Source: Escherichia phage ALITA | Length of the DNA: 64,000 bases | Direction: 5' to 3' (one strand) | Sequence record: PP359570 | Shown: in pieces, positions 583 to 52,971 of the stretch | How the letters are laid out: each line of letters starts with the position of its first letter | Position numbering within the stretch: position 1 is the stretch's first letter | The notes under the pieces: generated by a model | Told to the model about the DNA's origin: nothing | Database searches by the model: none | Seen by the model: only the letters and a program-made list of their open reading frames with translations | Translations under genes and position numbers: made by a program

Positions 583-775
583 TTGTAACCCTCTCATTTA
601 AAGTCTCAACACAATTTTTAAAATCCCTAGAGAAACAATACATCTGTTCTCCGTTCCTGTTGATAGTAATTGTATGGTTATCAATATATGTTGTCAAGAT
701 AAAAATCAAACAAAACAACCCTAGAGCAAAACAAATATTTTCAAACAGAATCCAAAGAACACGTAAAACCACCAT
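569..775 (-). CDS. hypothetical small hydrophobic protein
   Basis: 68-aa track ORF with a hydrophobic stretch; no recognisable motif. Confidence 0.25.
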   Translation of the reverse strand: MVVLRVLWILFENICFALGLFCLIFILTTYIDNHTITINRNGEQMYCFSRDFKNCVETLNERVTNEKH

Positions 776-814
776 CAGATCACCTCAACAAAGCCCCCGA
801 AGGGGCTTAATGAA

Positions 815-1792
815 TTAAGCAACAGTCTGGTCTTCTTTTTCAGGGAAGATTAAACTTGCAATAACACCCAACCCAAGAGTACCTAACACAATATACATAC
901 TGATCGTCGGATCAATGTGTGCTGGCAGGAAACTCACTTTTGCGTGCAGAGTTTCTGCAAACGGATGATACATCAGTTTTACACCCACAAACACCAGGAC
1001 TACGATAACTGCTTTCTCCAGATGAACCAAATACTTCAGTGCAACACTAAGAACAAAGAACAGAGCACGTAAACCTAAGATTGCACAAAGCATCGAAGAG
1101 AACACCAGCAGAGGTTCTTGTGTCACTGCAATTACTGCTGGAACAGAGTCTACTGCAAAGATTACGTCTACCATTTCCATTACAAACACACAAACCAGAG
1201 CCGGAGTTGCTACACGAACACCATTTTTGATTGTGAAGAACTTCTCACCATCCATCTGATCAGATACAGGGAACAGCTTACGAACAATACGAGTAGCCCA
1301 GTGTTTAGAGTAATCAATTTCTGCATCATTATCCCCAGCGAATACCATTTTAGCCGCACAGAAAAGGATGACAGCACCGAAGAAGATATTAACATACCAG
1401 CCCAAACTCAACAAGTAAGTACCTACTGCTACAAACACACCTCGGAAGACAATTGCACCTGCAATACCCCAAAGTAGAATCTTGTGCTGCAAGTGTGTGC
1501 TTTTAATACCAAAACTTGCGAAGACTGCCACAAATACTACTAAGTTATCTACAGAAAGAGATTTCTCCAACACATAACCACTCAAGAACAAGCTCGCAAA
1601 ATCAGCACCGTGTTGGAAGTATACAAAACCATAGTAGGCTAATGATACCCCAATCCAGAAAATTGACCAGCCAATTGCAGATTTAAATGAGATCTCTTTG
1701 TTTTCTCTGTGTCCAAAGAAGTCAATACAAATCGACAAGACTAAAATACCCACTAAAACAACCACATCAATAATTGGGAAACCCAGTTGCAT
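815..1792 (-). CDS. TerC-family integral membrane protein
   Basis: 325 aa, multiple TM helices, TerC-like LEKSLSVDNLVVF motif; AGAGGAG RBS upstream of ATG. Confidence 0.75.
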   Translation of the reverse strand: MQLGFPIIDVVVLVGILVLSICIDFFGHRENKEISFKSAIGWSIFWIGVSLAYYGFVYFQHGADFASLFLSGYVLEKSLSVDNLVVFVAVFASFGIKSTHLQHKILLWGIAGAIVFRGVFVAVGTYLLSLGWYVNIFFGAVILFCAAKMVFAGDNDAEIDYSKHWATRIVRKLFPVSDQMDGEKFFTIKNGVRVATPALVCVFVMEMVDVIFAVDSVPAVIAVTQEPLLVFSSMLCAILGLRALFFVLSVALKYLVHLEKAVIVVLVFVGVKLMYHPFAETLHAKVSFLPAHIDPTISMYIVLGTLGLGVIASLIFPEKEDQTVA

Positions 1793-1869
1793 TCTTTTCT
1801 CCTCTTTAATGCGGAGGACAATCCTCCGCTCTATGTCTTATACTATAAACTGTTTTTAAAGAAAGTCAA

Positions 1870-2118
1870 CTAGTTCAGTTCTGTAATTTTAAGTTTATCT
1901 TCTTTGTTAATGATAGGGAAAGCTACAGCATCACCTACGTCATCAATAAAGCAAATAGCAATACCACCTTCCACTTTGCTAATCTGACCATTAAAGGCAT
2001 GATACGGGGCAGGAACTTGATCTCCATCTTCAAGGAGAATAGCCTCGTAAACCTTGCCGATAGTACAATCACGAGTGTTTCTAAATTTTTCAAGCACTTC
2101 AACATTTACTTTACGCAT
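1870..2118 (-). CDS. hypothetical protein
   Basis: 82-aa ORF co-oriented and tightly packed with neighbours. Confidence 0.45.
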   Translation of the reverse strand: MRKVNVEVLEKFRNTRDCTIGKVYEAILLEDGDQVPAPYHAFNGQISKVEGGIAICFIDDVGDAVAFPIINKEDKLKITELN

Positions 2119-2132
2119 ATAAAAATCCTCTC

Positions 2133-2339
2133 TTATTTGTTAGATTGAAAGATACCACGAAGTACCGCAAGAATGAACGTCACACAGACTACACTCCAAA
2201 ACGTTACAGGAACATGATGCCAGTCTAAACCGATAATGTCAATCATATAGTTGTATGCTAAAAGCAGTAGCCAACTAGGGATTAACACAATCAAGAACAC
2301 AACAATAAAACAACCTAATACTGCTAAAACACCTGCCAT
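2133..2339 (-). CDS. small membrane protein
   Basis: 68 aa with two predicted TM helices. Confidence 0.45.
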   Translation of the reverse strand: MAGVLAVLGCFIVVFLIVLIPSWLLLLAYNYMIDIIGLDWHHVPVTFWSVVCVTFILAVLRGIFQSNK

Positions 2340-2348
2340 ACTTTCTCC

Positions 2349-3065
2349 TTATTTCAGTTTGTAAACAATTACATTTAAACCTTTGTTCACTAGAGTTTCT
2401 TCGATCATAAGTTTTACAATATTCCAAGAACCTCCAGCCAAACCACAACCAAGCATTGGTAAACCTACAATTTTACCGCCTGAAGATACAACATCGTCTC
2501 CCATACTATCTAACGCATTGTAGATAGCTTCATAATTCAGGTCACGCTTACCTTCCTCACGACGACTATAACCATATTGTCCATATAAATTATAAATTGT
2601 CAAATTGTTTTCTGTATATTTGGTAAACGTACCTAATTTTTTATAATCACCACGTTTAGTGGCACAATCTGCTTTAAACGCACCAGGCCACTTGCTTTTA
2701 ATTTTTGGTGCAATACCACTACCCATAGTGCAAAAACAGTTACAGCAGTGTGCTATAGCGTCTATATCGCCTCTCTCGGCTGCTGCTAAAAGATCACCGT
2801 ATACCTCAATGATACCTGCCGGATAACTTGTTACAATTTCATCTTCCCAATACATTTTCTCTACACCACCGATCAGTGCAAAGTTTTGTGTAATGCGATC
2901 ATCAATATAGTTAAGACCTGAAACATACACAGCGTATTCATCCTGTGCTGTAATACCTTGCACACGAATTCTTAAGACACCATCTTTATCTGTTGCTACA
3001 CGCCCAAAATCTTTTTCTGTAATATTGGTGATAGGATCTCCGAAAGTCATTACTTTATTAGACAT
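2349..3065 (-). CDS. macro-domain protein (TARG1/OARD1-like ADP-ribose-processing fold)
   Basis: Start moved to internal MSNKV (ATG about 3063-3065) just after the stop of the upstream gene; motif IAHCCNCFCTMGSGIAPKIKSKW resembles the AHC..(D)C.MGAGIA signature of TARG1-type macrodomains. Confidence 0.55.
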   Translation of the reverse strand: MSNKVMTFGDPITNITEKDFGRVATDKDGVLRIRVQGITAQDEYAVYVSGLNYIDDRITQNFALIGGVEKMYWEDEIVTSYPAGIIEVYGDLLAAAERGDIDAIAHCCNCFCTMGSGIAPKIKSKWPGAFKADCATKRGDYKKLGTFTKYTENNLTIYNLYGQYGYSRREEGKRDLNYEAIYNALDSMGDDVVSSGGKIVGLPMLGCGLAGGSWNIVKLMIEETLVNKGLNVIVYKLK

Positions 3066-3915
3066 AATAATCCCCTTTAACATTAGGTTTGTTGATAATG
3101 TTGCTTTCAAAAAATTGACGTAGGAAATCAAAGTTCTCTTTGTATTTTTCAATGTTATTGTAACCTTCTGCAAGGCAACCAAAGAACAGTTGTTCTACAT
3201 AATACAAAGGAAGTTGTGAAAGTGCAATTTTAAAATCAACTTCGCTTTGACTCATTAGATACTTAATAGGACGAACCAAACATTTAGCATCAGCTTCTTG
3301 CTTAATCATTTTAATAAAAGCTGCCAGATTATTGATATAGTTGAAGTTAAGTGCAGCTTCGGTGTTGGCTTCTGTACCTTCATACTTTGCAAAGTACAGG
3401 AAAAACGTATCGTTTTCAACACCTTCTTTGTCTAAAATTTCAATAAGTTTTTCTTCGTGTGTTCCTGTAATATTAACATCATCAATGAAAATCAGAGTTT
3501 TATTACCCCAGAAATCACGATTGATAGAGAAAGTGTCACCATCGATCAAAGCCTTACGATCTTCTTTGCTAAGAAATCCATAATCATTGATATAGCTCAC
3601 TTTACGATGAACGATATCCCACTCCACTGGTTTACCACCTTTGATAGAGATTAGGTAGTTGAGGTGATCTACAAAATGTTCAGATAACACTGTAGCTGCA
3701 TTTTTCACATAGTTATATGGAGATGGAATAACAACAAAACTTTCATTTACCAGTCGTTCTTCATACTTAGAAAAGAAACTTTCAGCCAGAATGCGCCCCA
3801 TTCTTTTTGCTGCCTGGTTACTACCAAACTTTAGTTTGGAATAATCTGCAATGTTAAATTTTGCTTCCTTCAGGTTAGTAAAAGTATTAGCAAAATGTTG
3901 AATTTGATTACGCAT
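3058..3915 (-). CDS. phosphoribosyltransferase (type I PRTase)-like protein
   Basis: KTLIFIDDVNITGTHEE matches the PRPP-binding loop (hydrophobic x4-DD-x-TG-T); stop abuts the macro-domain gene start. Confidence 0.45.
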   Translation of the reverse strand: MRNQIQHFANTFTNLKEAKFNIADYSKLKFGSNQAAKRMGRILAESFFSKYEERLVNESFVVIPSPYNYVKNAATVLSEHFVDHLNYLISIKGGKPVEWDIVHRKVSYINDYGFLSKEDRKALIDGDTFSINRDFWGNKTLIFIDDVNITGTHEEKLIEILDKEGVENDTFFLYFAKYEGTEANTEAALNFNYINNLAAFIKMIKQEADAKCLVRPIKYLMSQSEVDFKIALSQLPLYYVEQLFFGCLAEGYNNIEKYKENFDFLRQFFESNIINKPNVKGDYYV

Positions 3916-4564
3916 TAATAAGTTCCTCTTTTTTAAGTTTAGCCAACAAGTCTTCTGGATTAATAATATGACAGAACTTCATCCCTATGTCAACAGCTTT
4001 TCCATCATAAATCAAACTATCTCCAACGTGTAAAATCTCTTCTGGTGCGAGATCAAACGTCACCATTTCATCAAAAGAGAGTTTAAAAAACCTAGGATCT
4101 GGTTTACACAAGCAAAACTCGTCAGAAAAATGCATAAAGTCAAATGGTAATTTTGTTAAGCCAGAATATACAGCTAAGAAACTACCTGGTACAAAATTAG
4201 TATTGCTCTTAATACTCAAAGAGTAGGTTGAACTTAGCTCTTCCAACTTCTTGCAAAGTTCAGGATTCAATGTTGGAGGATGTTTTATAAACATTGCCAA
4301 ACAATCTCTTTTTAACCCATCCACTTTATCAAGATCAATGTTCAAACGAGTAGAAAGTGTTACCCAAGCATCCTTAGACGTTCCACAAATGCCTTTTTCT
4401 GCTTTTAAATCCAAGAAAGTTTTTACCTCTTTGTATACGGTAGCTGCTTCTGCCTCAGAGCAAGAGGCATACTCGGCAATAACCTTGTTGCGCTCTTCTG
4501 CATACAAAGGGTTAGCAGTAATAAGAGTATTCCATACATCAAAAGAAATATGCTTAACAGTCAT
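3908..4564 (-). CDS. HAD-superfamily hydrolase/phosphatase-like protein
   Basis: Start at MTVKH (ATG about 4562-4564, GGAGG RBS); HAD motif I-like ISFDVWNTL and motif IV-like HVGDSLIYDG; overlaps PRTase-like gene start. Confidence 0.55.
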   Translation of the reverse strand: MTVKHISFDVWNTLITANPLYAEERNKVIAEYASCSEAEAATVYKEVKTFLDLKAEKGICGTSKDAWVTLSTRLNIDLDKVDGLKRDCLAMFIKHPPTLNPELCKKLEELSSTYSLSIKSNTNFVPGSFLAVYSGLTKLPFDFMHFSDEFCLCKPDPRFFKLSFDEMVTFDLAPEEILHVGDSLIYDGKAVDIGMKFCHIINPEDLLAKLKKEELINA

Positions 4565-4566
4565 TT

Positions 4567-4722
4567 TTAATCCTCCGTCCAAAAGAATATCATCTGCTTA
4601 ATTTTATTGATTTCTTGATGTAGTAACTTTCCAGCATGTGATTGATCTTTAATATTGACAGCAAGAATTTCAAGTTCCGTTAGTTTTTCTTGGATAGCTT
4701 TATATTCATCATCTGTAAGCAT
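4567..4722 (-). CDS. hypothetical small protein (51 aa)
   Basis: Unlisted short ORF MLTDDEYKAIQEK... filling the gap, RBS-like AAAGGGGA upstream; coordinates approximate. Confidence 0.3.
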   Translation of the reverse strand: MLTDDEYKAIQEKLTELEILAVNIKDQSHAGKLLHQEINKIKQMIFFWTED

Positions 4723-4733
4723 TTTCTTCCCCT

Positions 4734-4925
4734 TTAGAATGGTAATCTTTGTATGTCACTTATCCCCACACCAAGAAGTCTAGCAATATCCTTATCTAAA
4801 AGCAACTCTTTTTGTTCTAAAATGTTAATCAGATCTCCTAATACTTCTTTAATGTCACGATCATTTTTAGCAACGTGACCACCTGCTGTATCAACTTTAT
4901 CTTTAAAAACAAAGTAATGATCCAT
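4734..4925 (-). CDS. hypothetical protein
   Basis: Track ORF 4734..4937; start moved to MDHYF which has a GGAGGG RBS. Confidence 0.4.
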   Translation of the reverse strand: MDHYFVFKDKVDTAGGHVAKNDRDIKEVLGDLINILEQKELLLDKDIARLLGVGISDIQRLPF

Positions 4926-4942
4926 AATACCCTCCATATAAA

Positions 4943-4967
4943 TAAAGGAGGCTTTCGCCTCCTTTTA
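4943..4967 (-). terminator. rho-independent terminator hairpin (GGAGGC-GAAA-GCCTCC plus T-run)
   Basis: Perfect GC-rich inverted repeat followed by TTTATTTAT on minus strand, directly downstream of the ATPase gene. Confidence 0.55.
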
Positions 4968-4971
4968 TCAC

Positions 4972-6132
4972 TTAGTAAGAACGACCACCAAACACATACT
5001 CTGTGTAGTTTTTACGTTCTTTGTTTTTAATAACAACTTCAATGTTGTTGCCTTTATCATCGGTGAACACAAAGTGATAACCGTCACCACCCATTGTACG
5101 GATGTGTTTTTCATCATACGTCAGCAAGATACGGTCTACACCCCAGTAGTAGTCACCTTCTTCATCTTTGTCTTCTACTGTAACGACCCCTTCCATTTCA
5201 GGAAGATGCTCTTCTCCTAGCTTATGGTCTACAGCTACAACATAACGATTACCGCTAAACAAACCCTGTGCTGTCATACCGTCAATATCGGTATCTGCCG
5301 AAACATCTCCTGTACGATCTACACCGTTAACTTTCAGGAGTTTAACTTCTTTTGCAGCATAGCGGTGTTCAGTAATACTGATACCCATTAATGCAAGTGC
5401 ATCAGAGAATTTGTCATTAGGGTAACGGTTAAGTTCTTCTACTAGTGACTGAACAATATCAAAGTTCAAGTCCACGGAAAGATTATAAAGCGTTTCAAAA
5501 TCTGGTAAAAAGGCTTTGTTCTCCAGATTTTTAGCCAGATAGTCATCCATAGTAGCTTTAGGTAGTTTCTTATAGCTAAAACTGTAGAAAATACGGCTAG
5601 GACGATTACGCAAAAATTCTGATACATAACCATCATTTTTAGTCAATACAAACAGCTTGTCATAGCCACCTACACCATCCAGCAGAGTAAGCAAACCATC
5701 CTGTGCATCTTTTTCAGCATACAGTTTATCAAATTCATCGATCATAATCATCACAGGTTGTGTGATTTTAGACATAAAATTGATAAAGCCTTCGCCATTA
5801 AAAGCACTACCGATAGAAATAGTAGGAATACCCATTTCACGAAGAGCAGAAGACAGCATTTTAGCTTGCAAAGTTTTACCACTACCCTTCGTACCCTCAA
5901 GGAGAACACCTGTGTTTTTACCTTTGCGGCTAAGGAACGTCTTGATAATACGTTCTGATTTATCATCAGTATCACCGTATGTTACTGAAGGGACTTCCAT
6001 ATCGTTTTTAGGATACAGGAAGAACTCACCACTTTGAGTAACACCTACACCAAAAGTTCCTGCTGGAATTTCTTCAATATCTGTACCAGATTTCTGACGC
6101 AGGAAGATTTGATTGCCGAATACTGTAAACAT
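4972..6132 (-). CDS. P-loop NTPase (AAA-like ATPase), paralog A
   Basis: Walker A GTKGSGKT, Walker B-like MIMIDEFDK; N-terminal ~250 aa paralogous to 21127..22254. Confidence 0.6.
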   Translation of the reverse strand: MFTVFGNQIFLRQKSGTDIEEIPAGTFGVGVTQSGEFFLYPKNDMEVPSVTYGDTDDKSERIIKTFLSRKGKNTGVLLEGTKGSGKTLQAKMLSSALREMGIPTISIGSAFNGEGFINFMSKITQPVMIMIDEFDKLYAEKDAQDGLLTLLDGVGGYDKLFVLTKNDGYVSEFLRNRPSRIFYSFSYKKLPKATMDDYLAKNLENKAFLPDFETLYNLSVDLNFDIVQSLVEELNRYPNDKFSDALALMGISITEHRYAAKEVKLLKVNGVDRTGDVSADTDIDGMTAQGLFSGNRYVVAVDHKLGEEHLPEMEGVVTVEDKDEEGDYYWGVDRILLTYDEKHIRTMGGDGYHFVFTDDKGNNIEVVIKNKERKNYTEYVFGGRSY

Positions 6133-6152
6133 AGTTTTCTCCTCTATTTAAT

Positions 6153-6623
6153 TTAGTCAGATTCCCAAATGTTGTCTTTCTTAACCCACATTCGTTGATT
6201 ATCTGAACCTCTATAACGTTTCGTTGTTGGTTGATTCATATCATACTTACCATCTATCACTATGTCAACCAGTTTTTTAATTTTCTCTGGAATTTCTTCA
6301 AAAAGATATCCTGTATATAAGACAATATCTTTTTTGTTTCCAAAACAATCTCTTACCTTCTCAAGAACATACTCTACAGTGTCAATGTTCTCTTTGTCAA
6401 GAGGTTCACCACCTAAAACTGTTAATCCTTTAATGAAAGGTCGAGATAAATCTTCCAAGATAAGATCTAATGTTTCAGTAGTGAACTCTTGTCCGTAGTT
6501 ATACGACCAGGCTTTCTGGTTAAAGCAGCCACGGCAACCGTGGCTACAACCGCTCACCCACAAAGAGCATCTTACACCATCACCGTTGAGCATGTCAACA
6601 GGTTCATATCCGGCGTAATTCAA
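6153..6623 (-). CDS. nrdG: anaerobic ribonucleotide reductase activating protein (radical SAM)
   Basis: 156 aa, Cys cluster CSLWVSGCSHGCRGC, immediately downstream of and overlapping nrdD. Confidence 0.8.
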   Translation of the reverse strand: MNYAGYEPVDMLNGDGVRCSLWVSGCSHGCRGCFNQKAWSYNYGQEFTTETLDLILEDLSRPFIKGLTVLGGEPLDKENIDTVEYVLEKVRDCFGNKKDIVLYTGYLFEEIPEKIKKLVDIVIDGKYDMNQPTTKRYRGSDNQRMWVKKDNIWESD

Positions 6624-8419
6624 AAATGTTTCTCCCTTTCTAGTACCTCTTGCATTTTACCTTTATTATAAGGGCGAGAGTTAGGGGCAGAAAGGTATCC
6701 TGACACTCTTCTGATTACAGATATAGATTCTTCCTCATGATTGCCACAACTTGGACACTCGAAGCCTTTAGCTGTTGCCTTAAATTCACCATGAAAACCA
6801 CATTTGAAACACTGATCTACAGGTTGGTTCACGCCAAAATAAGGAATTTTGTTGTAGGCATAATCTACAAGAGTTTCCAGTGCTTGCAAGTTATTTTTAA
6901 GGTTTGGTGTTTCTACATAACCTATGTTCCCACCGTTACTGATTTGTGCAAAACCTTCCTCATAATCCCACTTTTGGAACGGGGTAGTGTGCATCCACAC
7001 AGGTTGATGGAAAGAGTTTGTCAAGTAGTCACGATCAATAGAACCAGGATAGCGATCATTTAATGCTTTGGCAAATTTATAGCACAAGGATTCTGCTGGT
7101 GTTCCATACAAACTAAAAGCTAAACCAGAACGTTCTTTAAATGTGCCACAGATATCCTTCATATATTGAAGGATGTTTTTACCCATTGCTTTTGGATTGG
7201 TGTTACCTGGGTATAAAATCTCCATAGCTTCTGCTAAACCTACATAACCGATACTAATAGAGGCATAACCACCTTCAAATAGTTTACCAATCTCTTCATT
7301 AGCTTCTAGTCGAGCTAAAGCCCCTTCCATAAACAATGTAGGGTTTTGAGATGCTTTGGTATGTCTAATACGGTTAACACGTAGCATATGTGCCTTATAC
7401 GCCACCTCCATATGTTGTTCCAACAGTTCAGTAAATAAGATGCCCTTTTCACGGGACTCTGCTGCAATGATAGGTAAGTTTAAAGAAACTACGCCTAAGT
7501 TGAAACGACCATCATATTTTTCACCTTGCTCTGTTGCATAGTATGACAAGAAGCTACGGCAACCCATGCTTGTGACGCGACCATCTGAAGATCCTGTAAC
7601 TTCTTTATTTAAAGGTACAGAGATAAAATCAGGATAAATGCGTTCAGCACAACACTCCATTGCCAGTTGCTTCAAATCATAGTTTGGATCGCCAGCTTTC
7701 ATGTTAACACCATCTTCCAAGAAGAAGATAACTTTAGGAAACACAGGAGTTACCCTATCTTTTCCCAATCCTTGTTTGTGCACCATTAGGTAGTTTTTAG
7801 TGATCATTCTACCAAAAGCAGAGGTATCCAAACCTAAACTAATTGTTATAAAAGGTGACTGACCATTTACACTCATTAGAGTGTTCACCTGGTAGATTAA
7901 AGTTTGCATTGCATCATAGACCTGTTTATCTACCATACGCATAGCAATATCATAATCGCCAACATCGGCATATATTTTATTAAAACTTGCTTTAACGTAT
8001 TGACTAAGCCCAGTATCAACATGTGCACAAGTTTGTCCACCATATTGGCTAGAAGCTACTGCTTGAATAATTTGAGTTAGGACAGTAGTCGCTACACCGA
8101 TAGATTTTGGTTTTTCAATATGTGCATTACCAATACGGAAACCGTTCTCAAGCATATCTTGGTAATTTACCAGGCAACAATTAGTTAAAGGTGAGAGTAA
8201 ATAATCTAAATCGTGAATGTGACCATACCCACTTTTATGCCATTCTGCCAGATCTTCCGGTAAAATATGGGTCATTGCCATGTGCTTGCTTAGGATACCT
8301 GCTAGTAAGTCTCGGTGAGTATTAACAATCATTGCAGGTTTGTTTGCATTTTCACGAGTAAATTCTTCGGATGTTTGTTCGAGGAATCCGATTACATCCT
8401 CATATAGTTTTTGGGTCAT
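6620..8419 (-). CDS. nrdD: anaerobic ribonucleoside-triphosphate reductase
   Basis: ~600 aa; C-terminal glycine-radical motif RRVSGYLS and Zn-ribbon Cys pairs (CFKCGF...CPSCG); start set at MTQKL with GGAGG RBS; uninterrupted (no intron). Confidence 0.85.
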   Translation of the reverse strand: MTQKLYEDVIGFLEQTSEEFTRENANKPAMIVNTHRDLLAGILSKHMAMTHILPEDLAEWHKSGYGHIHDLDYLLSPLTNCCLVNYQDMLENGFRIGNAHIEKPKSIGVATTVLTQIIQAVASSQYGGQTCAHVDTGLSQYVKASFNKIYADVGDYDIAMRMVDKQVYDAMQTLIYQVNTLMSVNGQSPFITISLGLDTSAFGRMITKNYLMVHKQGLGKDRVTPVFPKVIFFLEDGVNMKAGDPNYDLKQLAMECCAERIYPDFISVPLNKEVTGSSDGRVTSMGCRSFLSYYATEQGEKYDGRFNLGVVSLNLPIIAAESREKGILFTELLEQHMEVAYKAHMLRVNRIRHTKASQNPTLFMEGALARLEANEEIGKLFEGGYASISIGYVGLAEAMEILYPGNTNPKAMGKNILQYMKDICGTFKERSGLAFSLYGTPAESLCYKFAKALNDRYPGSIDRDYLTNSFHQPVWMHTTPFQKWDYEEGFAQISNGGNIGYVETPNLKNNLQALETLVDYAYNKIPYFGVNQPVDQCFKCGFHGEFKATAKGFECPSCGNHEEESISVIRRVSGYLSAPNSRPYNKGKMQEVLEREKHF

Positions 8420-8435
8420 TAATCCTCCGTGGAAA

Positions 8436-8462
8436 ATAAAAGCCAGCATTAAGCTGGCTTTA
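8436..8462 (-). terminator. rho-independent terminator-like hairpin
   Basis: AGCCAGC-TTAA-GCTGGCT stem-loop followed by TTTTATTTT on minus strand, between the 316-aa gene and the nrdD RBS. Confidence 0.45.
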
Positions 8463-8508
8463 GGGTGGATCTTTATTTTAAATCTTTTTCGTAAGATTGT
8501 CCTTGATC

Positions 8509-9459
8509 TTAGTCAAGGTTTTTGGTAATACGTGTACAACCATCAGAAGTCAAACCGTCAACTTGAGTTTCCCAAGTGCCATGAATATTTCGGAACAATG
8601 TTGTTACACCTTTTGGTTCATTAATAATGATTGCCATAACAAGTTTAGGATCGATAACAGACATAATCTTTTCCTCAATACCCTCTGTAATAACATTATT
8701 ACGCACAATATTAATTACATCTTCTTGTACAGAAAGGGTACTTACGTTCTTAAGAGTATATACCTGCTGCGTAGTGTAAATGATACGAACATAACTTACA
8801 GAACGAGTAGGCACAGGTTTACGCGGTCGGCGAAAACGTGGTTTTGGTGAAGATTCAGTCTTACTTTCATTTTTTGAATAATACTCCTCAAACAGTTTAG
8901 TAAATGTTTTTACATCAACTACAAACCGATCTTTCCTATATGGAGAATTCTTATGTGCACCATTAATACCACTGTTTTCATCGAAGAAAGTAATGTTTTC
9001 TTCAGTTGAATATGTTAGATAATGGTCTGCATCTTTCCAATGTGGTTGTGGACAATGCGGATTACAAACGGAAAGCAGATAACTAATATCTTCTTCCGTT
9101 GCACTAGTATCCAGGAAACACGTATTATGCACAGTCAGTTCTACTTTTGCAACCATATCCATTTCTTTATCCTCGTTGGCAAGATATTCAGTACGAATAA
9201 TCTCCAGAAAACCTTCAGGTGTTACTTCCATAAATGTGTATTCAGGGTGAAGTTCCATATATTCAAATCCACAACCATCTAATTGCTGTAGGAAGTTAGG
9301 ATAGAAGAACAAATCATTAACACTGTGAATCAGATCATTGATTTCTGCTTCAGTTGTGTAACCAAAACTCTTGTGAATTGCTTCGTTAAGAATATGCAGG
9401 ATACCCATCTCTTCTGCTGCTTTTTTAACTTCCAGTTTATTAGCGTAAAATGCAATCAT
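8509..9459 (-). CDS. hypothetical protein with basic KPRFRRPRKP segment
   Basis: 316-aa ORF in operon context; no recognisable catalytic motif. Confidence 0.5.
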   Translation of the reverse strand: MIAFYANKLEVKKAAEEMGILHILNEAIHKSFGYTTEAEINDLIHSVNDLFFYPNFLQQLDGCGFEYMELHPEYTFMEVTPEGFLEIIRTEYLANEDKEMDMVAKVELTVHNTCFLDTSATEEDISYLLSVCNPHCPQPHWKDADHYLTYSTEENITFFDENSGINGAHKNSPYRKDRFVVDVKTFTKLFEEYYSKNESKTESSPKPRFRRPRKPVPTRSVSYVRIIYTTQQVYTLKNVSTLSVQEDVINIVRNNVITEGIEEKIMSVIDPKLVMAIIINEPKGVTTLFRNIHGTWETQVDGLTSDGCTRITKNLD

Positions 9460-21126: not shown

Positions 21127-22254
21127 ATGAAATACACGATTTATGGTGATATTGTAAGTGTAAATAAAGATATGGGCGTGGAATCTAACTATCTTCCACC
21201 TGGATTCTATACTGTTAGTCGTGATCCCCTTGGCAATTATTTTTTAAGCCGTGGTAATCTAACAGGTGTACCGGATGTTTTGTATGGTGAAACAGAAAAA
21301 CGAGCAAATCACGTTATCCGTACATTCCATCGCCGGAGTGCACAAGGTAAAAACACAGGCTTGCTTCTGACAGGAACTAAGGGCAGTGGTAAAACTATGT
21401 TAGCCAAACTCATTAGTCGTGACCTTGTAGAAGAAGGTATTCCAACTATTATGGTTACTCAAGCCTACAGCGATGCTAATTTCATTGAACTTATTAGCAA
21501 GATCACCGACAAAGCAGTGATTATTTTTGACGAGTTTGATAAAGTATATGAGAAGAAACAAGATCAAGAAGCACTTCTCACTTTGTTAGATGGTACTGGG
21601 AGTGGTAATAAACTGTTTATTCTAACTAAAAACAGTGGTTTTATCTCTGAATTCTTTTTAAATCGTCCTAGTCGTGTGTTTTATAATTTTAATTATGATA
21701 AAATCTCACTAGAAACTATGATTGACTATTTAGATAAAAACTTGGATAACAAAGCACACTTTGATAATTTCCAAAGGCTTTGGGATGTAAGTTTAGAGTT
21801 GTCCTTTGATGTGATCCAAGGTATAGTAGAAGAACTTAATTTCTACCCTGATTTATCCTTTAAAGAATGCATCTCTATGATGGGCGTTTCTTTGGGTGGT
21901 GGTAATAAATGGGATATCAGCAGCGTTGTTATTAATGGAAAACTTCAGAAAGTTAGCTGGGTATCTAGTTGGCATAACTTCACACCTGCAATCTTCTTAG
22001 GTGGCTCGTGCACACTAGACGTGTACTTGTCATCTCCAAGTGATGCAGACTCTAAAGAAGCCCTTGCTAATAGCTCTTACGTGGTTTTTGATGATGAAGG
22101 CGATGCTCGAATTCCATTGAATGCGACAAAAATGAAAGCAGATCTTATTACAGGCGGTAAAATCGTTGTGTTTAGTGATGATCCAGAAGATTCTTTCCGT
22201 ATTGTTCTGGAACCAACTATCACCAATGGTGCAACTTTGGCAAGCGTGTTTTAA
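21127..22254 (+). CDS. P-loop NTPase (AAA-like ATPase), paralog B
   Basis: Walker A GTKGSGKT, Walker B VIIFDEFDK; N-terminal ~250 aa alignable to 4972..6132 product; C-terminus divergent. Confidence 0.6.
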   Translation: MKYTIYGDIVSVNKDMGVESNYLPPGFYTVSRDPLGNYFLSRGNLTGVPDVLYGETEKRANHVIRTFHRRSAQGKNTGLLLTGTKGSGKTMLAKLISRDLVEEGIPTIMVTQAYSDANFIELISKITDKAVIIFDEFDKVYEKKQDQEALLTLLDGTGSGNKLFILTKNSGFISEFFLNRPSRVFYNFNYDKISLETMIDYLDKNLDNKAHFDNFQRLWDVSLELSFDVIQGIVEELNFYPDLSFKECISMMGVSLGGGNKWDISSVVINGKLQKVSWVSSWHNFTPAIFLGGSCTLDVYLSSPSDADSKEALANSSYVVFDDEGDARIPLNATKMKADLITGGKIVVFSDDPEDSFRIVLEPTITNGATLASVF

Positions 22255-22328: not shown

Positions 22329-23735
22329 ATGCCAGCACCAAAATCATGGGAACAATATAAAGAAGAATTAACACCCCTTGCTAAAAATCACAACATTCAG
22401 ATTCTGGGTTATATTGGTGAATGGAAAGGGAGCAAGACTAAACTTAAGCTATCTTGCTCTGATCATGGGGAGTGGGAAAGTACCATAATCAATAGCTTTA
22501 AAACTAAAGGCGGTAAATGTTGCCCCGATTGCAATGGTCGTAGAAAAGTAACAGAAGAAAAGGAATGTATTTCCCTTGTTGATGTTGCTAAAGAAAGAGG
22601 GTTTACTTTTATAGGTCTTGCCGAAGAGTGGCGAGGTGTGCTAACAAAAATCCGCATAGTTTGCCCTAAACATGGAGAGTGGAACACCACGACCATTAGT
22701 GGTTTTAGGAAGGGACGTGGTTGTCCGGCATGTGCAAGTAATAAGCCGTTAACATGGGAAACAGAATTACCGATCTTGGAAGAGATAGCACAGAAGAAGG
22801 GGTATCAGGTGTTAGGGTACGTGGGAGAATGGAAAGGGATTGATACAAAACTTGATTTGTTGTGTCACTGTGGTAACAGATGGGATACTACAAGTATTAA
22901 CAGTTTTAAACATGATCATGGTTGTCCTTTATGTGGGTATGAGAATACAAGGAAGGCACAAACAATACCCGACGATCAACATATTGCAGATTTCTTTTCT
23001 ACAGGGAAATTTAAGGAAGGCACTATCTTTACCAATACAGGGAAACGTAGTTGTAGTAAAAACAAGGACATTATCTGGATGATCGAATGTCCTGTTTGCT
23101 CTCATGATGAGTATGTGCAAGCAGGTGTATGTGATGGTAAGTTTTATATGACACGTAGCGATCTTAAGGCTGGACACTTGCCCTGCCGCTGTGCAACTAA
23201 CTCTCATTATACAGAAAATCAGATTACCTACAGGGTAAAAAAGGAAGTAGAAGGGAGAGGGTATGTCTGGGTAGGTTGGATCGGTAAACCGTCTATAAGA
23301 CTGGGTAATTTTAAATATCTTTGTCTTGTTCATGGGGAACAAATTGGTAGTGCTTATCGCTTACTATATCAGGATAATGGTTGTCCACAATGTGCAGGTC
23401 ATAGTCAGCAGCAATTGTATGTTAATGTTGTTAAAGATAATGGTATTATAGTTGCTCTTAAGTTTGGTATATCTAAAGATAGTGCTAGGAGATTAAACAT
23501 TCAAAATAGGCGTAATATGTTTTTTATGGAGCGTATTTGTTTATATGATTTTAGTACAGTGAAGCAGTGTAAGGCTGCTGAAAGAGCTATAAAGAAAAAA
23601 TTAAAAACTGGTATCTTAACAGCAAGAGAGTTGAAAGATGGTTATACAGAAACAGTAAGTGTTTCTGATTTGGAAAATCTTCAAAAAATTATTACACAAT
23701 ATGGTGGCAAATTAGTATACAGTAAGGAGGTGTAA
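22329..23735 (+). CDS. tandem zinc-ribbon repeat protein with C-terminal GIY-YIG-like (T5orf172-type) domain
   Basis: About 5 repeats of GY.GEWKG..TKL...C..HGEW.TT.I..FK...GCP.C; C-terminal LYVNVV...ALKFGIS...RR...E resembles GIY / YIG / Arg / Glu arrangement. Confidence 0.45.
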   Translation: MPAPKSWEQYKEELTPLAKNHNIQILGYIGEWKGSKTKLKLSCSDHGEWESTIINSFKTKGGKCCPDCNGRRKVTEEKECISLVDVAKERGFTFIGLAEEWRGVLTKIRIVCPKHGEWNTTTISGFRKGRGCPACASNKPLTWETELPILEEIAQKKGYQVLGYVGEWKGIDTKLDLLCHCGNRWDTTSINSFKHDHGCPLCGYENTRKAQTIPDDQHIADFFSTGKFKEGTIFTNTGKRSCSKNKDIIWMIECPVCSHDEYVQAGVCDGKFYMTRSDLKAGHLPCRCATNSHYTENQITYRVKKEVEGRGYVWVGWIGKPSIRLGNFKYLCLVHGEQIGSAYRLLYQDNGCPQCAGHSQQQLYVNVVKDNGIIVALKFGISKDSARRLNIQNRRNMFFMERICLYDFSTVKQCKAAERAIKKKLKTGILTARELKDGYTETVSVSDLENLQKIITQYGGKLVYSKEV

Positions 23736-24287
23736 ATGCGGATTACTGATAAGTATGTGTTCTTCTTCTCGGCAAAAGATGAATTTAGCAACTGGTATCT
23801 ATCATCTTTTATTGAACCTTTAGCTCCCAAGTATAATAATTCTATTACAAGTTCTGTTGAATTTACTTGTGTGGAACAATATATGATGTGGAGAAAAGCA
23901 TGTTTGTTTTATGATTACAGTATTGCATCTTCTATTTTAACCGGAGATCTAAGATATACAGGAGAAAAAGAACAAGCATATTATAAACGACTAGGCAGAT
24001 TAGTTAAAGATTATGATGAAGATACCTGGGCTTCTTTACGGGAGAAGATTGTCAAGCGTGGTTTGTATCTTAAATACACACAAAATGAAGATCTCAAAAA
24101 TAAACTTATCGCTTACGCAGATAAGGAGTTCGTAGAGGCAAGCCCCTATGATTCTATTTATGGTATCAAAATGGGGATGTGGGATCGGGACGTGGAAAAT
24201 AAGGATTGTTGGAAAGGGCAAAATCTTTTAGGAAAATGGCATACAGACCTTGCTGTTTATCTAAAATCACAATCTGATATTTCCTGA
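23736..24287 (+). CDS. NADAR (YbiA/DUF1768-like) domain protein
   Basis: FFFS..DEFSNWY, EQYMMWRKA, LGRLV, KFVEASPYDSIYGIKMG match conserved NADAR blocks. Confidence 0.55.
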   Translation: MRITDKYVFFFSAKDEFSNWYLSSFIEPLAPKYNNSITSSVEFTCVEQYMMWRKACLFYDYSIASSILTGDLRYTGEKEQAYYKRLGRLVKDYDEDTWASLREKIVKRGLYLKYTQNEDLKNKLIAYADKEFVEASPYDSIYGIKMGMWDRDVENKDCWKGQNLLGKWHTDLAVYLKSQSDIS

Positions 24288-47226: not shown

Positions 47227-47254
47227 ATAAACCCGCTTCGGCGGGTTTTCTTGT
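47227..47254 (+). terminator. rho-independent terminator (AAACCCGC-TTCG-GCGGGTTT plus T-run)
   Basis: Identical hairpin to the one at 22268. Confidence 0.7.
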
Positions 47255-47595: not shown

Positions 47596-47636
47596 ATAAA
47601 GCCCCTAGAATCGCTTCTAGGGGGCTTTTGTTTGCA
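47596..47636. terminator. bidirectional terminator-like hairpin at the convergent junction
   Basis: AAAGCCCCTAGAA-TCGC-TTCTAGGGGGCTTTT, T-run on one side and A-run on the other. Confidence 0.55.
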
Positions 47637-47965: not shown

Positions 47966-47990
47966 TAAGAAAAGGGGCTTTCGCCCCCTT
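47966..47990 (-). terminator. rho-independent terminator (GGGGC-GAAA-GCCCC family)
   Basis: AAAAGGGGCTTTCGCCCCC downstream of the Sir2-like gene on minus strand. Confidence 0.5.
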
Positions 47991-47997
47991 GGTCAAG

Positions 47998-48810
47998 TTA
48001 CTTAGTCAAATGATCTTCTATCATTTTTATGAAAGCAGGATTGCTAAAAGCCTCTGCTGCCTTTTCTCTATAAACAAAGACTCCTCTATCTTCGTAAAGA
48101 AGAGTTTCTTCGTAATTAATTCCTGGGTTAACAACAATCATTTTTGTACCCATATTAAGTGCAGGGAATAATTCCCAATTAAAATTGATAACTTGGTTTG
48201 AACATCCTACTACAACAACCAAATCTTGCATGGTCAAAGTATCAAACAAGTGAGCCATATCTGCATACAAAGGTGCAGCCTCACCAAAAAATACAACATT
48301 AGGCTTCACCCAGTTATAATCATCTATGTTTATACTATTGTAACCAATGTCTACCAGTGTTTTGTAATCTCCAGGATGCATACGGTAAACTACTTCAGGA
48401 AGATACCCGTGCACGTGAATAACAGAATCCCTGTCCACACCTGCTCGCTCTAATAGATCATCAACGTTTGTTGTCAAGTTTACTACTTGGTTAGGATATT
48501 CCTTAAACCACTTTGCTATTTGAATATGTGCAGCATTAGGTTGTACATCTTTAAGCTCAACACGTCTTTTGTTATAAAATTCGTGTGTTTTGGCATACAA
48601 ATCCATACCGTTCTCGTCTACACCACCGACCACTGGAAGATCTGGAGATGTTCTCACACGATAACCTGCTTGGAAAGCTCCAATATCGCAGACCTCTTCT
48701 AAATCATATTCTTCCCACAAGGCACGACCACTATCTGTGTCTGTTCGGAACGTTCGAATCCCACTGTCTGCACTTAAACCTGCGCCACTAACAAAAATTA
48801 CTCTTCGCAT
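47998..48810 (-). CDS. Sir2 (sirtuin)-family protein, NAD-dependent deacylase or ADP-ribosyltransferase-like
   Basis: FVSGAGLSADSGIRTFR (compare GAGIS.eSGIptFR), NVDDLLERAG...HVHG, KPNVVFFGE; no four-Cys Zn module. Confidence 0.7.
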   Translation of the reverse strand: MRRVIFVSGAGLSADSGIRTFRTDTDSGRALWEEYDLEEVCDIGAFQAGYRVRTSPDLPVVGGVDENGMDLYAKTHEFYNKRRVELKDVQPNAAHIQIAKWFKEYPNQVVNLTTNVDDLLERAGVDRDSVIHVHGYLPEVVYRMHPGDYKTLVDIGYNSINIDDYNWVKPNVVFFGEAAPLYADMAHLFDTLTMQDLVVVVGCSNQVINFNWELFPALNMGTKMIVVNPGINYEETLLYEDRGVFVYREKAAEAFSNPAFIKMIEDHLTK

Positions 48811-49367
48811 TCAATATCCTCTTCGTAATCATCATCCCAAGAAGATGCGTCGTAACGCTCTTCCTCTTCGAAATCCCAATTAATTTCTACTCCAAAATCT
48901 AAAAACAATTTAACAATGTTTTCTGTAGAGTAGTATTTATCATAAGCGTTAGCTAGTTCCCAATACTTGTCACTCAATTTTTTATATTTAGGATCATTAT
49001 AATCATAATCTACTTTATAACCATAATCATACATCTCTTGTTCAGCTTTAAGCATAGCTTCTGGTGTAAGAAGATTAGGGAACGGACGATTTCTTTCTTT
49101 TAACTTAGAAACAATCCAGTTTGCAACATTTGCCACTTCACCATCTTGATTATCACCTAAACAACTTGCATAATCTCCATCTTCGTAAGTGCCTAAATCC
49201 CCACAGACCACATGTACAATAGATGAATACGATCCACACGTTTCACAATCTGAAAAAGTGTCTACTGTTGTAATATCAATAGATAAAACTGGTAAAGCCA
49301 TAGCTTCTTTCACACAAGCCTCCTCATATAATAACATATCATCAAAACCCATATATCCTCCACACAA
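48798..49367 (-). CDS. hypothetical acidic protein
   Basis: 189-aa ORF, very acidic C-terminus. Confidence 0.45.
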   Translation of the reverse strand: MCGGYMGFDDMLLYEEACVKEAMALPVLSIDITTVDTFSDCETCGSYSSIVHVVCGDLGTYEDGDYASCLGDNQDGEVANVANWIVSKLKERNRPFPNLLTPEAMLKAEQEMYDYGYKVDYDYNDPKYKKLSDKYWELANAYDKYYSTENIVKLFLDFGVEINWDFEEEERYDASSWDDDYEEDIECEE

Positions 49368-49406
49368 ATAAAGCCCCTGATTGGGGCTTTGGTTAAGTTT
49401 TACGGA

Positions 49407-50015
49407 TTATACCAGACTTTTAAGGTACTTGTCAAGGGCTTCTTGATCACCTTGACAAACATAGCAACGGAAGTCTTGAGCAGAAGGTTCTTTGTCCTCG
49501 TCCCAATCCCAATAAACAGTACCTTTATAACGTGAGCCTGGGAACTCGAAATATGCTGTATGAGTAATATGATGTGGGCCACCCCAAAACTGTATAAAAG
49601 TAAATTGAGGATACGCTGCTTTAACTGTATTTTCAAACCAAGTTTTACGATCTAATGCTTCGTTTATAAAATAAGCATGGCGTTCCATTTCATCCCAGTT
49701 TTTCCAAACGCATTTTTCATCCAGAGAAAAAACAAAATCCTCGCTGTTGAATTCATCTGTATCTTCCAAAATATCATAATCATGTGCACTAGGTATCCAC
49801 CATCCAGCTTCTAATAGTGCTTTCACGGGTACAAAACCTTTTTCAGCATATTGATCAAATTCTTTTACTCTACGTACAGTGCAGTATTCATCTTCACCAC
49901 CAATGTCCAGCAGACAAGCACCTTTGCGTCTTGCTGCAAGACCATGTGTATCAAAAACTACAACACTACCTTCACCATCTTCACGATCTACTTGATATGC
50001 AACTTTTTGAGTCAT
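49407..50015 (-). CDS. hypothetical protein
   Basis: 202-aa Trp/Asp-rich ORF. Confidence 0.5.
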   Translation of the reverse strand: MTQKVAYQVDREDGEGSVVVFDTHGLAARRKGACLLDIGGEDEYCTVRRVKEFDQYAEKGFVPVKALLEAGWWIPSAHDYDILEDTDEFNSEDFVFSLDEKCVWKNWDEMERHAYFINEALDRKTWFENTVKAAYPQFTFIQFWGGPHHITHTAYFEFPGSRYKGTVYWDWDEDKEPSAQDFRCYVCQGDQEALDKYLKSLV

Positions 50016-51594: not shown

Positions 51595-51622
51595 AACAAA
51601 AAACCCGCCGAAGCGGGTTTAT
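51595..51622 (-). terminator. rho-independent terminator (AAACCCGC-TTCG-GCGGGTTT plus T7 on minus strand)
   Basis: Same hairpin family as 22268 and 47227, inverted. Confidence 0.65.
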
Positions 51623-51881: not shown

Positions 51882-52402
51882 ACAATCTCCTCGTAATTGT
51901 TATTGTGTTTTACTGTCTCAACATACAATAAAGATTCCATCTGTAATACATTACCAGAAATAATAAACCCATAAGCCATTTCAGATGTGTCTATATCATA
52001 TGCCCCGTCTTCCGGTTTAGCAAAGTGTAAAACTATTTCATCTGGGTTTTCTTCATCCCATAGTTTAGAAATTTTCCGAACCAGAATGTTAGCTAAAATA
52101 GTTGACATTCGGGATAAAGCTGTATCCTCATATCTTTTAAAACCTAGCCAATAGAGGTTAAGAATTTCTACTTCTTCTTGTGTTAAGTTTTTGTCTAAAG
52201 TAATCAGATCTGTAGAGCACGGCGTTTTTGTTGAACCTACTGTTACAAAACCTGGAGTGTTATGAAAAACAATCTTAACTTTATCACGTATAAAGTTTAA
52301 ACCTTGTGCCTCAACTATATATTGTATTGTAGGTACAATATCGTTTGTTACATCAATAAAACTATCTTTAATGACGCTTATATTATTTCTGGACAATACC
52401 AT
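51878..52402 (-). CDS. hypothetical protein
   Basis: 174-aa ORF. Confidence 0.5.
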   Translation of the reverse strand: MVLSRNNISVIKDSFIDVTNDIVPTIQYIVEAQGLNFIRDKVKIVFHNTPGFVTVGSTKTPCSTDLITLDKNLTQEEVEILNLYWLGFKRYEDTALSRMSTILANILVRKISKLWDEENPDEIVLHFAKPEDGAYDIDTSEMAYGFIISGNVLQMESLLYVETVKHNNNYEEIV

Positions 52403-52961
52403 TCTCCTCTAAGATAGGCTTAATAAATTCGAAAATTTGTTTTTTACTTTTACCTCGAATATTAAAACAAGGAACATTAAACTTTTTAGCCAACATCCAA
52501 GCTGTTCTTGTACCACCTAAAGGATCTCCATTTTTATCTGTATTTGCACAAGCCAAAAGAAAACAAGATGGTTTTGGATTCTCAAGATCTCTTCCAAGAA
52601 CTTGGTGGATATTTCTTTGATGTAATTTTTTAGCACCTTGAGATAATCTGTCCCAAGCTGGATGCAATTCTTTTGCATATTGCAAGGTTAAAGCATAGTT
52701 TACACTATCTGGTCTGTCAAGAACAATAACCTCTCCCTCTATTTCATTACCTTTAAACGAGAGCCAAGGGATGTATATTTCTTTCTTTGTATTGTTCCCA
52801 CTATCATATACCCCGCATTCAAATGCGGAATCTGCACCTTCTGCTTTACCAGATCGCAAAATGAACCATGTAGATAGCCATTTTGCAACAGATACCATAG
52901 TATCCCATTCTTCGTCTGTAATATCTCTGCTACCAACACCTGTGTAGAATAAATCGCTCAT
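52383..52961 (-). CDS. Rossmann-like SLOG/DprA-type domain protein (tentative)
   Basis: Start at MSDLFY (GGAGAAAACC RBS); YTGVGSRD...SGKAEGADSA resembles the DprA/SLOG nucleotide-binding core. Confidence 0.35.
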   Translation of the reverse strand: MSDLFYTGVGSRDITDEEWDTMVSVAKWLSTWFILRSGKAEGADSAFECGVYDSGNNTKKEIYIPWLSFKGNEIEGEVIVLDRPDSVNYALTLQYAKELHPAWDRLSQGAKKLHQRNIHQVLGRDLENPKPSCFLLACANTDKNGDPLGGTRTAWMLAKKFNVPCFNIRGKSKKQIFEFIKPILEENGIVQK

Positions 52962-52971
52962 GGTTTTCTCC

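Follow-up and report, generated by a model that had tools for sequence, protein, structure and literature searches.

The gene at 47998..48810 on the minus strand of Escherichia phage ALITA (sequence record PP359570), within a stretch of 64,000 nucleotides referred to here as the window, encodes a sirtuin of 270 amino acids (ATG start) that belongs to a phage clade of the Sir2 family (PHROG 2162), has lost the zinc ligands of this family and has kept its catalytic residues. Our favoured reading, held tentatively, is that the protein is a lysine deacylase dependent on nicotinamide adenine dinucleotide (NAD+), i.e., a catalytically competent canonical sirtuin of a phage clade that functions independently of zinc. 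Family membership, the loss of the zinc ligands, the retention of the catalytic residues, the predicted fold and the operon layout are shown here; the substrate and the biological role we only infer. It should be noted that the ALITA window brings no new gene: the gene is already in databases under a Sir2 name, in hundreds of phage genomes including that of T5 (T5.102), and the present account describes more sharply a family that is known and as yet unstudied. In particular, the loss of the zinc ligands together with a Gln-to-Thr exchange across a virus-specific clade is new as a description, as far as we could find, and a further descriptive addition is that the zinc-less state does not place the protein among either the SirTMs or the defence NADases. 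It is usually said of sirtuins that they need their zinc module, and here a whole, apparently virus-restricted clade manages without the ligands and, what is more, changes a residue described as universal among sirtuins. If its members are deacylases, phages rewrite host protein acylation in infection; if RNA is their substrate, both a new sirtuin chemistry and a new means of counter-defence would be at hand. The carriers are easy to manipulate (T5, BASEL collection).

Family, zinc module and active site

That the product of 47998..48810 is a Sir2 protein is, judging from profile matches, far beyond chance. Namely, the Pfam model SIR2 (PF02146) matches the 270-residue protein with E=1.3e-22 and 81.1 bits (gathering score 24), and PHROG 2162, named 'Sir2 (NAD-dependent deacetylase)', spans residues 1-269 with E=1.3e-105. 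The protein has a single domain. Its counterpart in Escherichia phage arall, at 99.6% identity, is called 'putative Sir2-like protein', and the 4.2 kb surrounding the gene are 98.7% identical to Escherichia phage vB_Eco_PATM and are also matched by dozens more Justusliebigvirus genomes (phi92-like, Stephanstirmvirinae), in whose records the gene appears as 'putative Sir2-like protein', 'sirtuin family protein' (bas61_0186 of phage EmilieFrey) or 'NAD-dependent protein deacetylase'. With its full-length match, its shared motifs and an equal lack of CxxC pairs, the ALITA protein is a member of the phage clade represented by PHROG 2162, T5.102 and bas61_0186, and it is encoded by a large virulent proteobacterial phage. 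What sets it apart locally is an insertion of ~30 residues and surroundings without a recognised RNA-repair gene.

C41 and C203 are the only cysteines of the ALITA sirtuin, which has no C-x-x-C anywhere, just as the initial annotation of this gene had counted. In particular, the 44 residues from HG to FGE (134-177), which usually hold the four zinc ligands, are free of cysteine (sequence HGYLPEVVYRMHPGDYKTLVDIGYNSINIDDYNWVKPNVVFFGE), and the four cysteines in two CxxC pairs that characterize canonical sirtuins are therefore not there. In an alignment with the nearest zinc-containing relatives, the first CxxC pair falls at about Y142/Y149 and the second in a gap. That said, the initial annotation had described the protein as lacking the zinc module, and this holds for the ligands and not for the module itself: the length from HG to FGE is preserved, and the former module (48280..48411, minus strand, as are all features of the gene given below) is predicted as a three-stranded beta-sheet (model residues 134-142, 150-153 and 166-171), with a predicted local distance difference test score (pLDDT) of 85-90. 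In other words, the model suggests that the module has been retained and that the metal ligands alone have been lost. The same absence is seen in the relatives checked. Namely, none of the 120 closest protein clusters (55-92% identity, 1-5 cysteines each) contains C-x-x-C, and neither does any of eight representatives of separate phage lineages, the motifs of which are the same as in ALITA. As for C41 (48688..48690), it is invariant in the family and is not a zinc ligand; it aligns with A76 of CobB, a small residue of the acyl pocket according to the titles of PDB entries.

The structure was modelled with AlphaFold2 from an alignment of 18 sequences (A1), which gave a mean pLDDT of 77, a predicted template-modelling score of 0.79 and a confident Rossmann core. 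Poorly defined are residues about 20-60, comprising the cofactor-binding loop and an insertion; this low-confidence insertion of ~30 residues (about residues 50-75) has no counterpart in the T5, Mydovirus and Vequintavirus versions. When the model was compared with the PDB by Foldseek, complexes of E. coli CobB with peptides came out on top (6rxq, 1s5p; E about 1e-15), with a template-modelling score of 0.80 when normalised on CobB, followed within the 50 best matches by canonical sirtuins only, namely Sir2Af1/Af2, Sir2Tm, SIRT5 and SIRT2. No entry of ThsA, DSR2, Sir2-HerA or SirTM was found among these top 50. The sequence searches of the PDB agree: a single-sequence search had CobB 1s5p as its best match (E=1.5e-18), and a family-profile search ranked CobB (1e-23) before Sir2Af2 (7e-18), Sir2Af1 (4e-15), SIRT5 (4e-13) and Sir2Tm (7e-13). 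The structure prediction that the initial annotation had called for thus places the fold closest to canonical deacylases, CobB first, and not to ThsA, DSR or SirTM.

The sirtuin motifs named at the outset are all in place. The NAD-binding motif GAGLSADSGIRTFR (residues 9-22; 48745..48786) has its G, A, G, S, S, G, F and R invariant in the 18-sequence alignment; the canonical NAD-binding elements G9-S13 (GAGxS) and N115/D117 (N-x-D) are present, as are HG at 134-135 with the catalytic His134 (48409..48411) and KPNVVFFGE at 169-177. The class III signature Y79-x-x-R82 (FYNKRR; 48565..48576), both residues of which are invariant in A1, corresponds to the pair Y102/R105 that gives SIRT5 its specificity for succinyl and malonyl groups (PMC9499238). 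The 146 relatives compared have the catalytic His without exception; 136 of them have the Phe of the FR motif (Phe21), and 113 have the Y/R pair. Using CobB residue numbers derived from the PDB alignment (chain-to-residue offset 25), catalytic His147 of CobB aligns to H134, and four of five acyl-pocket positions, taken from the titles of engineered-CobB PDB entries (A76, Y92, I131 and V187), align to C41, Y79, V116 and V172, all conservative replacements or identities that are invariant in the family; the fifth, V161/162, falls in the remodelled module, where no reliable alignment is obtained. The catalytic base and the acyl pocket, in this sense, look intact. Two segments depart from the canonical pattern. 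Namely, TQNID reads TTNVD (residues 113-117; 48460..48474), with Gln replaced by Thr, and the clade-specific GCS...NFNWELFP (48163..48207) stands where canonical sirtuins have GTS...PA. Taken together, the ALITA sirtuin resembles CobB and SIRT5 in GAGxS, FR, N-x-D, HG, FGE, VNP, Y-x-x-R, the small residue at CobB A76 and its size, and differs from them in having no zinc ligands, in Gln to Thr and GTS to GCS, in the extra NFNWE and TDTxSG, and in being encoded by a virus.

A viral clade and its history

By tblastn, 983 phage records carry a homolog of the sirtuin. The carriers include T5 (T5.102, 52% identity), T5-like phages of Salmonella and Klebsiella, rV5-like Vequintavirus, Mydovirus and Phapecoctavirus, and more remote matches come from KVP40-like Vibrio phages (37-40%) and jumbo phages (30%). 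T5.102 has been labelled 'cobb: putative transferase' since the original T5 genome. In the 18-sequence alignment the family is highly conserved, with (near-)invariant GAGxSxxSGxxFR, EVC (containing C41), FYxxRR, PNxxH, TTNVD, HG, KPNVxFFxE, VVGCS, NFNWExFP and VVNP, as well as a TDTxSG insertion in the cofactor-binding loop. The clade has been noticed before: Iyer, Burroughs, Anantharaman and Aravind described in 2022 a separate clade of sirtuins in phages V5, Mydo, SP15 and BF, the text of their paper making no mention of the loss of zinc ligands (PMC9503650). In the literature that we searched, outside which lie most subscription journals, we found no experimental work on any phage sirtuin, and a search for zinc-free canonical sirtuins with measured activity gave nothing beyond an in-silico note that concerns acetic acid bacteria. 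The PhageMaP study, in its main text, does not mention whether the sirtuin of Bas63 is essential.

When 1.84 billion cluster representatives were searched exhaustively, 2,175 relatives were returned. The nearest proteins outside the family are CobB-like sirtuins of ~240 amino acids that have TQN(I/V)DDL and two C-x-x-C pairs around a conserved IGY. The two traits of the phage clade go largely together: at least three module cysteines are found in 9 of the 53 sequences with Thr at the Gln position and in 70 of the 80 with Gln. In a rough neighbour-joining tree, which is a distance tree only and is built from sequences that are not independent of each other, the ALITA sirtuin falls in a clade of 45 representatives, all zinc-less and all with Thr, Ser or Ala at the Gln position. 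The next node outward adds two proteins of the Thr type that still carry cysteines, which suggests that the exchange of Gln for Thr came first and the loss of the ligands later.

A scan of one genome per species, covering 185,579 bacterial and archaeal species with the patterns [QT]VINFNWE and NxTTNVDDL, gave a single true locus (26..8540, denoted L013) on the 43-kb metagenomic contig JBOFGC010000083.1. This contig is binned as a 'Bacilli bacterium' metagenome-assembled genome, encodes a T4-type endonuclease VII and NrdD/NrdG, and is almost certainly a phage contig. As far as an exact-pattern scan can tell, the sirtuin clade is viral.

Two observations on database records were made along the way. 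Next to the true sirtuin T5.102, the T5 gene T5.105 (7139..7645 of the T5 locus L004; YP_006933.1, 168 amino acids) is given in RefSeq as 'Sir2 (NAD-dependent deacetylase)', and it is in fact a HAD_SAK_2 ('Swiss Army Knife RNA repair') phosphatase with no Sir2 match, so that its Sir2 label is a mis-annotation that is propagating. In addition, several 'Campylobacter phage' records (MG065644, MG065652, MG065661 and others; host C. jejuni) are close to E. coli rV5-like and phi92-like phages, with an RNA ligase 98% identical in protein sequence to its E. coli phage counterpart and with matches to the DNA of the window; these records are probably mislabelled or contaminated.

Deacylation and the competing activities

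We favour lysine deacylation because the nearest relatives, both in sequence and in fold, are deacylases, and because the catalytic His, the acyl pocket, the class III Y/R pair and the module at the substrate cleft have been kept. The clade would, on this account, descend from CobB-like class III sirtuins. NAD+ would be held in the Rossmann cleft, where the carbonyl oxygen of an acyl-lysine would attack C1' and nicotinamide would leave; the ribose hydroxyl would then be activated by His134 and the intermediate resolved into the deacylated lysine and O-acyl-ADP-ribose. Given Tyr79 and Arg82, acidic acyl groups (succinyl, malonyl, glutaryl) would be preferred, as they are by SIRT5 and CobB, and the structural part of zinc would be taken over by the packing of side chains in a shortened three-stranded module. 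The gene appears to be served by its own sigma-70-type promoter, with its translation coupled to that of a small, acidic, Cys-containing protein, and the targets would be host or phage proteins during take-over. When the neighbourhoods of seven phage lineages were compared by BLAST, all against all, the sirtuin alone was shared beyond the sister genus; a conserved partner gene was thus rejected, as expected for a self-contained enzyme.

That said, a number of points weigh against this reading. In canonical sirtuins, the zinc module is reported to be needed for deacetylation (PMC12700824). In SIRT5, H158, Q140 and I142 are described as universal among sirtuins, with Q140 and I142 binding NAD (PMC9499238), and it is this 'universal' Gln of TQNID that is Thr, Ser or Ala throughout the clade, which also has GCS or GAS for GTS, the new NFNWE motif and the TDTxSG insertion. 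Since the NAD site is remodelled in all these ways, a change of function is possible. The CobB models of NCBIfam were all missed widely (87 against 320 bits for NF040867, 107 against 243 for NF001753), and the searched literature held no measured activity of any clade member. Genes for RNA-end repair and ADP-ribose processing stand next to the sirtuin in several lineages, which a protein deacylase does not account for. Finally, the CobB of the host is reported to restrict phages T4 and lambda (PMC4271551), and it is for this reason that a CobB-like deacylase would be of no obvious benefit to a phage. The initial annotation had asked whether alignment to the sirtuin classes would reveal a conventional CobB with zinc; it does not, as the ligands are absent and the NCBIfam cut-offs are not reached, and this leaves room for an activity other than deacetylation.

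The best of the alternatives, possible although we consider it rather unlikely, is RNA repair in the manner of KptA/Tpt1. Namely, ADP-ribose would be transferred from NAD+ onto the 2'-phosphate of tRNA cut by host anticodon nucleases, and in a second step the His-activated ribose 2''-OH would free ADP-ribose 1''-2'' cyclic phosphate and leave a 2'-OH end that can be ligated. Such a KptA-like role in RNA repair has been predicted for exactly this phage clade (PMC9503650), and its genomic contexts were reproduced here in four lineages, where genes of RNA-end processing (RNA ligase, cREC, 2H, HAD-SAK, Nudix) are neighbours of the sirtuin. In Vequintavirus AlexBoehm, a polynucleotide kinase (PNK) and a phosphoesterase are divergent from the order RNA ligase, cREC_REC (PF20274, E=4e-14), sirtuin and MazG-like pyrophosphohydrolase; in Mydovirus the order is phosphatase, sirtuin and RNA ligase; in T5 it is NrdD, two small open reading frames (ORFs), T5.102, two small ORFs and HAD_SAK_2 (PF18143, E=4e-20); and in jumbo phage G17 the sirtuin is followed by Nudix. 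In the T5-like phage DT57C, moreover, the sirtuin is reduced to a remnant of 273 nucleotides labelled 'defective' (2468..2740 of locus L012) and T5.103-105, including HAD_SAK_2, are absent; the sirtuin and HAD_SAK_2 have thus been lost together, and the module, lost as a block, is therefore one that a viable T5-like phage can do without. In formal terms the two-step chemistry runs parallel to that of sirtuins, so that the conserved His fits, and the remodelling of the NAD site by Gln to Thr, together with the loss of zinc, fits a changed function. KptA/Tpt1 itself, it should be noted, has an unrelated fold (ADP-ribosyltransferase superfamily), and the phage sirtuin might be at most its functional analogue, alike in a NAD+-dependent two-step ADP-ribosyl transfer and, in some phages, in its neighbours.

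Set against this is the distribution of these contexts. They are missing among the neighbours scanned around 47998..48810 and in KVP40-like phages, the neighbourhood in nt-1 showing nothing informative; in EmilieFrey, a close relative of ALITA, the RNA ligase/PNK cluster lies about 30 kb from the sirtuin. Of the Salmonella phage records, 289 have the sirtuin and only 14 a Rnl1-type ligase, i.e., most T5-like Salmonella carriers do without this ligase, which is an inconstant companion. The protein is strongly acidic as well (isoelectric point 4.83, net charge about -15; family median 4.94, the family being uniformly acidic), and the invariant basic residues of the phage family are all common to ordinary sirtuins, none of them being specific to the clade; for both reasons a nucleic-acid substrate is, weakly, disfavoured. 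The class III Y/R pair, which is suited to acyl-lysine, has survived, and the Nudix, MazG and HAD neighbours suit the processing of O-acyl-ADP-ribose equally. Indeed, Nudix, MazG, HAD, NADAR and Nampt neighbours are equally expected for any enzyme that turns NAD+ into nicotinamide and an ADP-ribose ester. In a wider form of the same idea, which we find doubtful to a similar degree, the loss of zinc, the Gln-to-Thr exchange and the NFNWE and TDTxSG elements may mark a changed function in which proteins are no longer deacylated and damaged or modified RNA is acted on, by removal of a 2'-phosphate or of some other chemical block on tRNA, to counter nucleases or toxins of the host. If true, no sirtuin before it would have had a nucleic acid as its substrate, and T5-, rV5-, phi92- and KVP40-like phages would have in it a widespread anti-defence enzyme.

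The initial annotation had instead suggested, from the absence of zinc ligands, either an ADP-ribosyltransferase of the macrodomain-linked kind or a defence NADase. That the protein is an ADP-ribosyltransferase marking proteins or nucleic acids of the host during take-over, with the phage Macro and NADAR proteins trimming or reversing the mark, seems improbable to us. In favour of it, ADP-ribosylation is carried out by some sirtuins (PMC4518038), the Gln-to-Thr exchange has remodelled the active site, and the phage encodes a Macro, a NADAR and a DprA-like gene. In L013, a distant relative, the order is NADAR, an unknown gene, Nampt, a small ORF, sirtuin, endonuclease VII and NrdD, with NADAR and Nampt within 3 kb of the sirtuin, which is the sole case seen with NAD-salvage neighbours. 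However, the SirTMs, which share with the ALITA protein the Sir2 fold and, presumably, the consumption of NAD+, are defined by the change of HG to QG and by a neighbouring macrodomain gene, in an operon or as a fusion, often with GcvH-L/LplA2 (PMC4518038). None of these hallmarks is present here: HG is kept, as in all 146 relatives, the only macro gene found in the window (PF01661; 2349..3182, minus strand) lies about 45 kb away in another transcription block, and GcvH-L/LplA2 are missing, so that a SirTM identity is rejected. SirTMs, in addition, are not a zinc-less class, as had been supposed, since they have a zinc-coordinating domain (PMC4518038), and restoring His for Gln in SirTM abolishes its activity (PMC4518038). 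The NADAR gene (23736..24287), 24 kb away, also belongs to another transcription block, Macro and NADAR are not neighbours of the sirtuin in the six other lineages compared, and fold and pocket residues are like those of deacylases. A link of the sirtuin to the genes for NAD and ADP-ribose processing of the phage, which had also been proposed, is plausible, with the L013 neighbourhood as the only direct hint.

Least probable of all, and very unlikely, is an NADase effector for superinfection exclusion or host shut-off, with the small acidic protein encoded upstream as its inhibitor: zinc-less Sir2 domains of defence systems are indeed NADases (PMC12700824) and the translational coupling recalls toxin-immunity pairs, but the protein matches PF02146 and is not of the SIR2_2 type, no ThsA- or DSR-like structure is among the 50 best fold matches, the upstream protein is confined to Stephanstirmvirinae while the sirtuin occurs in 983 phage records, the conserved acyl-pocket residues would be left unexplained, and a phage NADase would oppose the NAD+-reconstituting pair of close relatives. 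As for the SIR2_2 defence NADases themselves (ThsA, DSR1/2, Sir2-HerA, FAM118), they lack the whole zinc module, have a seven-stranded sheet and are fused to or paired with a sensor or partner (PMC12700824). Bound zinc is expected neither in them nor in the ALITA sirtuin, which differs in keeping the module, in its CobB-like fold matches and in having no SLOG, HerA, pAgo or TPR partner fused to it or adjoining it among the scanned neighbours. The PADLOC defence models gave a single marginal match (PDC-S65, E=0.0066 over 37 residues), i.e., nothing meaningful, and a defence-type identity is rejected. The pair just mentioned is Prs-like and Nampt-like (bas61_0254/0255 in EmilieFrey), and its counterparts in Bas63 rebuild NAD+ and counter Sir2-HerA (PMC11482910). 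By analogy, such a phage could afford an NAD+-consuming enzyme, and its macro protein could recycle O-acyl-ADP-ribose to ADP-ribose for use by this pair.

Surroundings of the gene in ALITA

The sirtuin gene lies within a leftward transcription block that reaches, judging from GC skew, from the window's end down to about 48 kb, and it is the second gene of a two-gene unit on the minus strand. Upstream of this unit stands a promoter-like site of sigma-70 consensus (49406..49435), TTGACA-18-TATAAT with an extended TG, in which 12 of 12 positions match the consensus. The first gene (PHROG 9509; 48798..49337) encodes 179 amino acids from an ATG at 49337 or 189 from a TTG at 49367, and its last 13 nucleotides overlap the start of the sirtuin gene (ATGCGAAGAGTAA). 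A Shine-Dalgarno-like GAAGAGGA (48817..48824) is found 6 nucleotides (48811-48816) 5' of the sirtuin ATG, and a terminator-like G+C-rich hairpin with a T-rich tail (47972..47990) directly follows the stop codon. Further hairpins are spread over this part of the window. Namely, a 20-nucleotide G+C-rich hairpin (AAACCCGCTTCGGCGGGTTT / complement) occurs twice between genes, at 47229..47248 and 51601..51620, with T-runs on both strands, and looks like a reused bidirectional terminator; two more such hairpins are found at 47602..47623 and 49370..49390.

Four cysteines of the PHROG 9509 protein are invariant (SDCETCG, ASC, EEC), and its C-terminus is poly-acidic. Its AlphaFold2 model, although confident (pLDDT 83.6), gave no informative match in a fold search of the PDB, Pfam gave no match to the sequence, and its homologs form five clusters only, all in Stephanstirmvirinae. 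With such a record, the notion that it supplies a zinc module in trans or acts as an inhibitor was set aside. The label 'putative aminoacyl-tRNA synthetase' that its gene bears in EmilieFrey is likewise unsupported, no paralogy with other 'synthetase-like' ORFs having been found.

The ten ORFs scanned around the sirtuin gene (47.7-55.8 kb) comprise PHROGs of unknown function, a DprA-like gene (PHROG 768 by profile scan; 52383..52964), a calcineurin-like phosphoesterase and a resolvase-family recombinase, and no RNA-repair gene was recognised among them. A neighbouring Dcm-type methyltransferase takes its name from the GenBank annotation of relatives. Farther away, the macro gene is one of three overlapping genes on the minus strand (2349..4582), which encode the Macro protein, a ComF-like phosphoribosyltransferase (PRTase_3, E=1e-41) and an HAD hydrolase and look like one unit for processing ADP-ribose and ribose phosphate; just downstream of them is a gene for a TerC-family membrane protein (815..1792). 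Directly 5' of the NADAR gene, the plus strand holds an ORF of 468 amino acids (22329..23735) that contains four CapR homology repeats (PF21817, E=7e-47) and matches T5orf172 weakly. In EmilieFrey a hypothetical gene of 978 nucleotides (bas61_0106) is found at this position instead, and the CapR-repeat ORF looks as if a gene, possibly a mobile one of nuclease type, had been exchanged or inserted in this lineage specifically. Finally, two ORFs, at 4972..6132 on the minus strand and 21127..22254 on the plus strand, encode AAA/STAND-like P-loop ATPases of ~380 amino acids with similar weak Pfam profiles (AAA, nSTAND3, Sigma54_activ_2) and may be paralogs; one of the two is labelled 'FtsH-like protease' in EmilieFrey.

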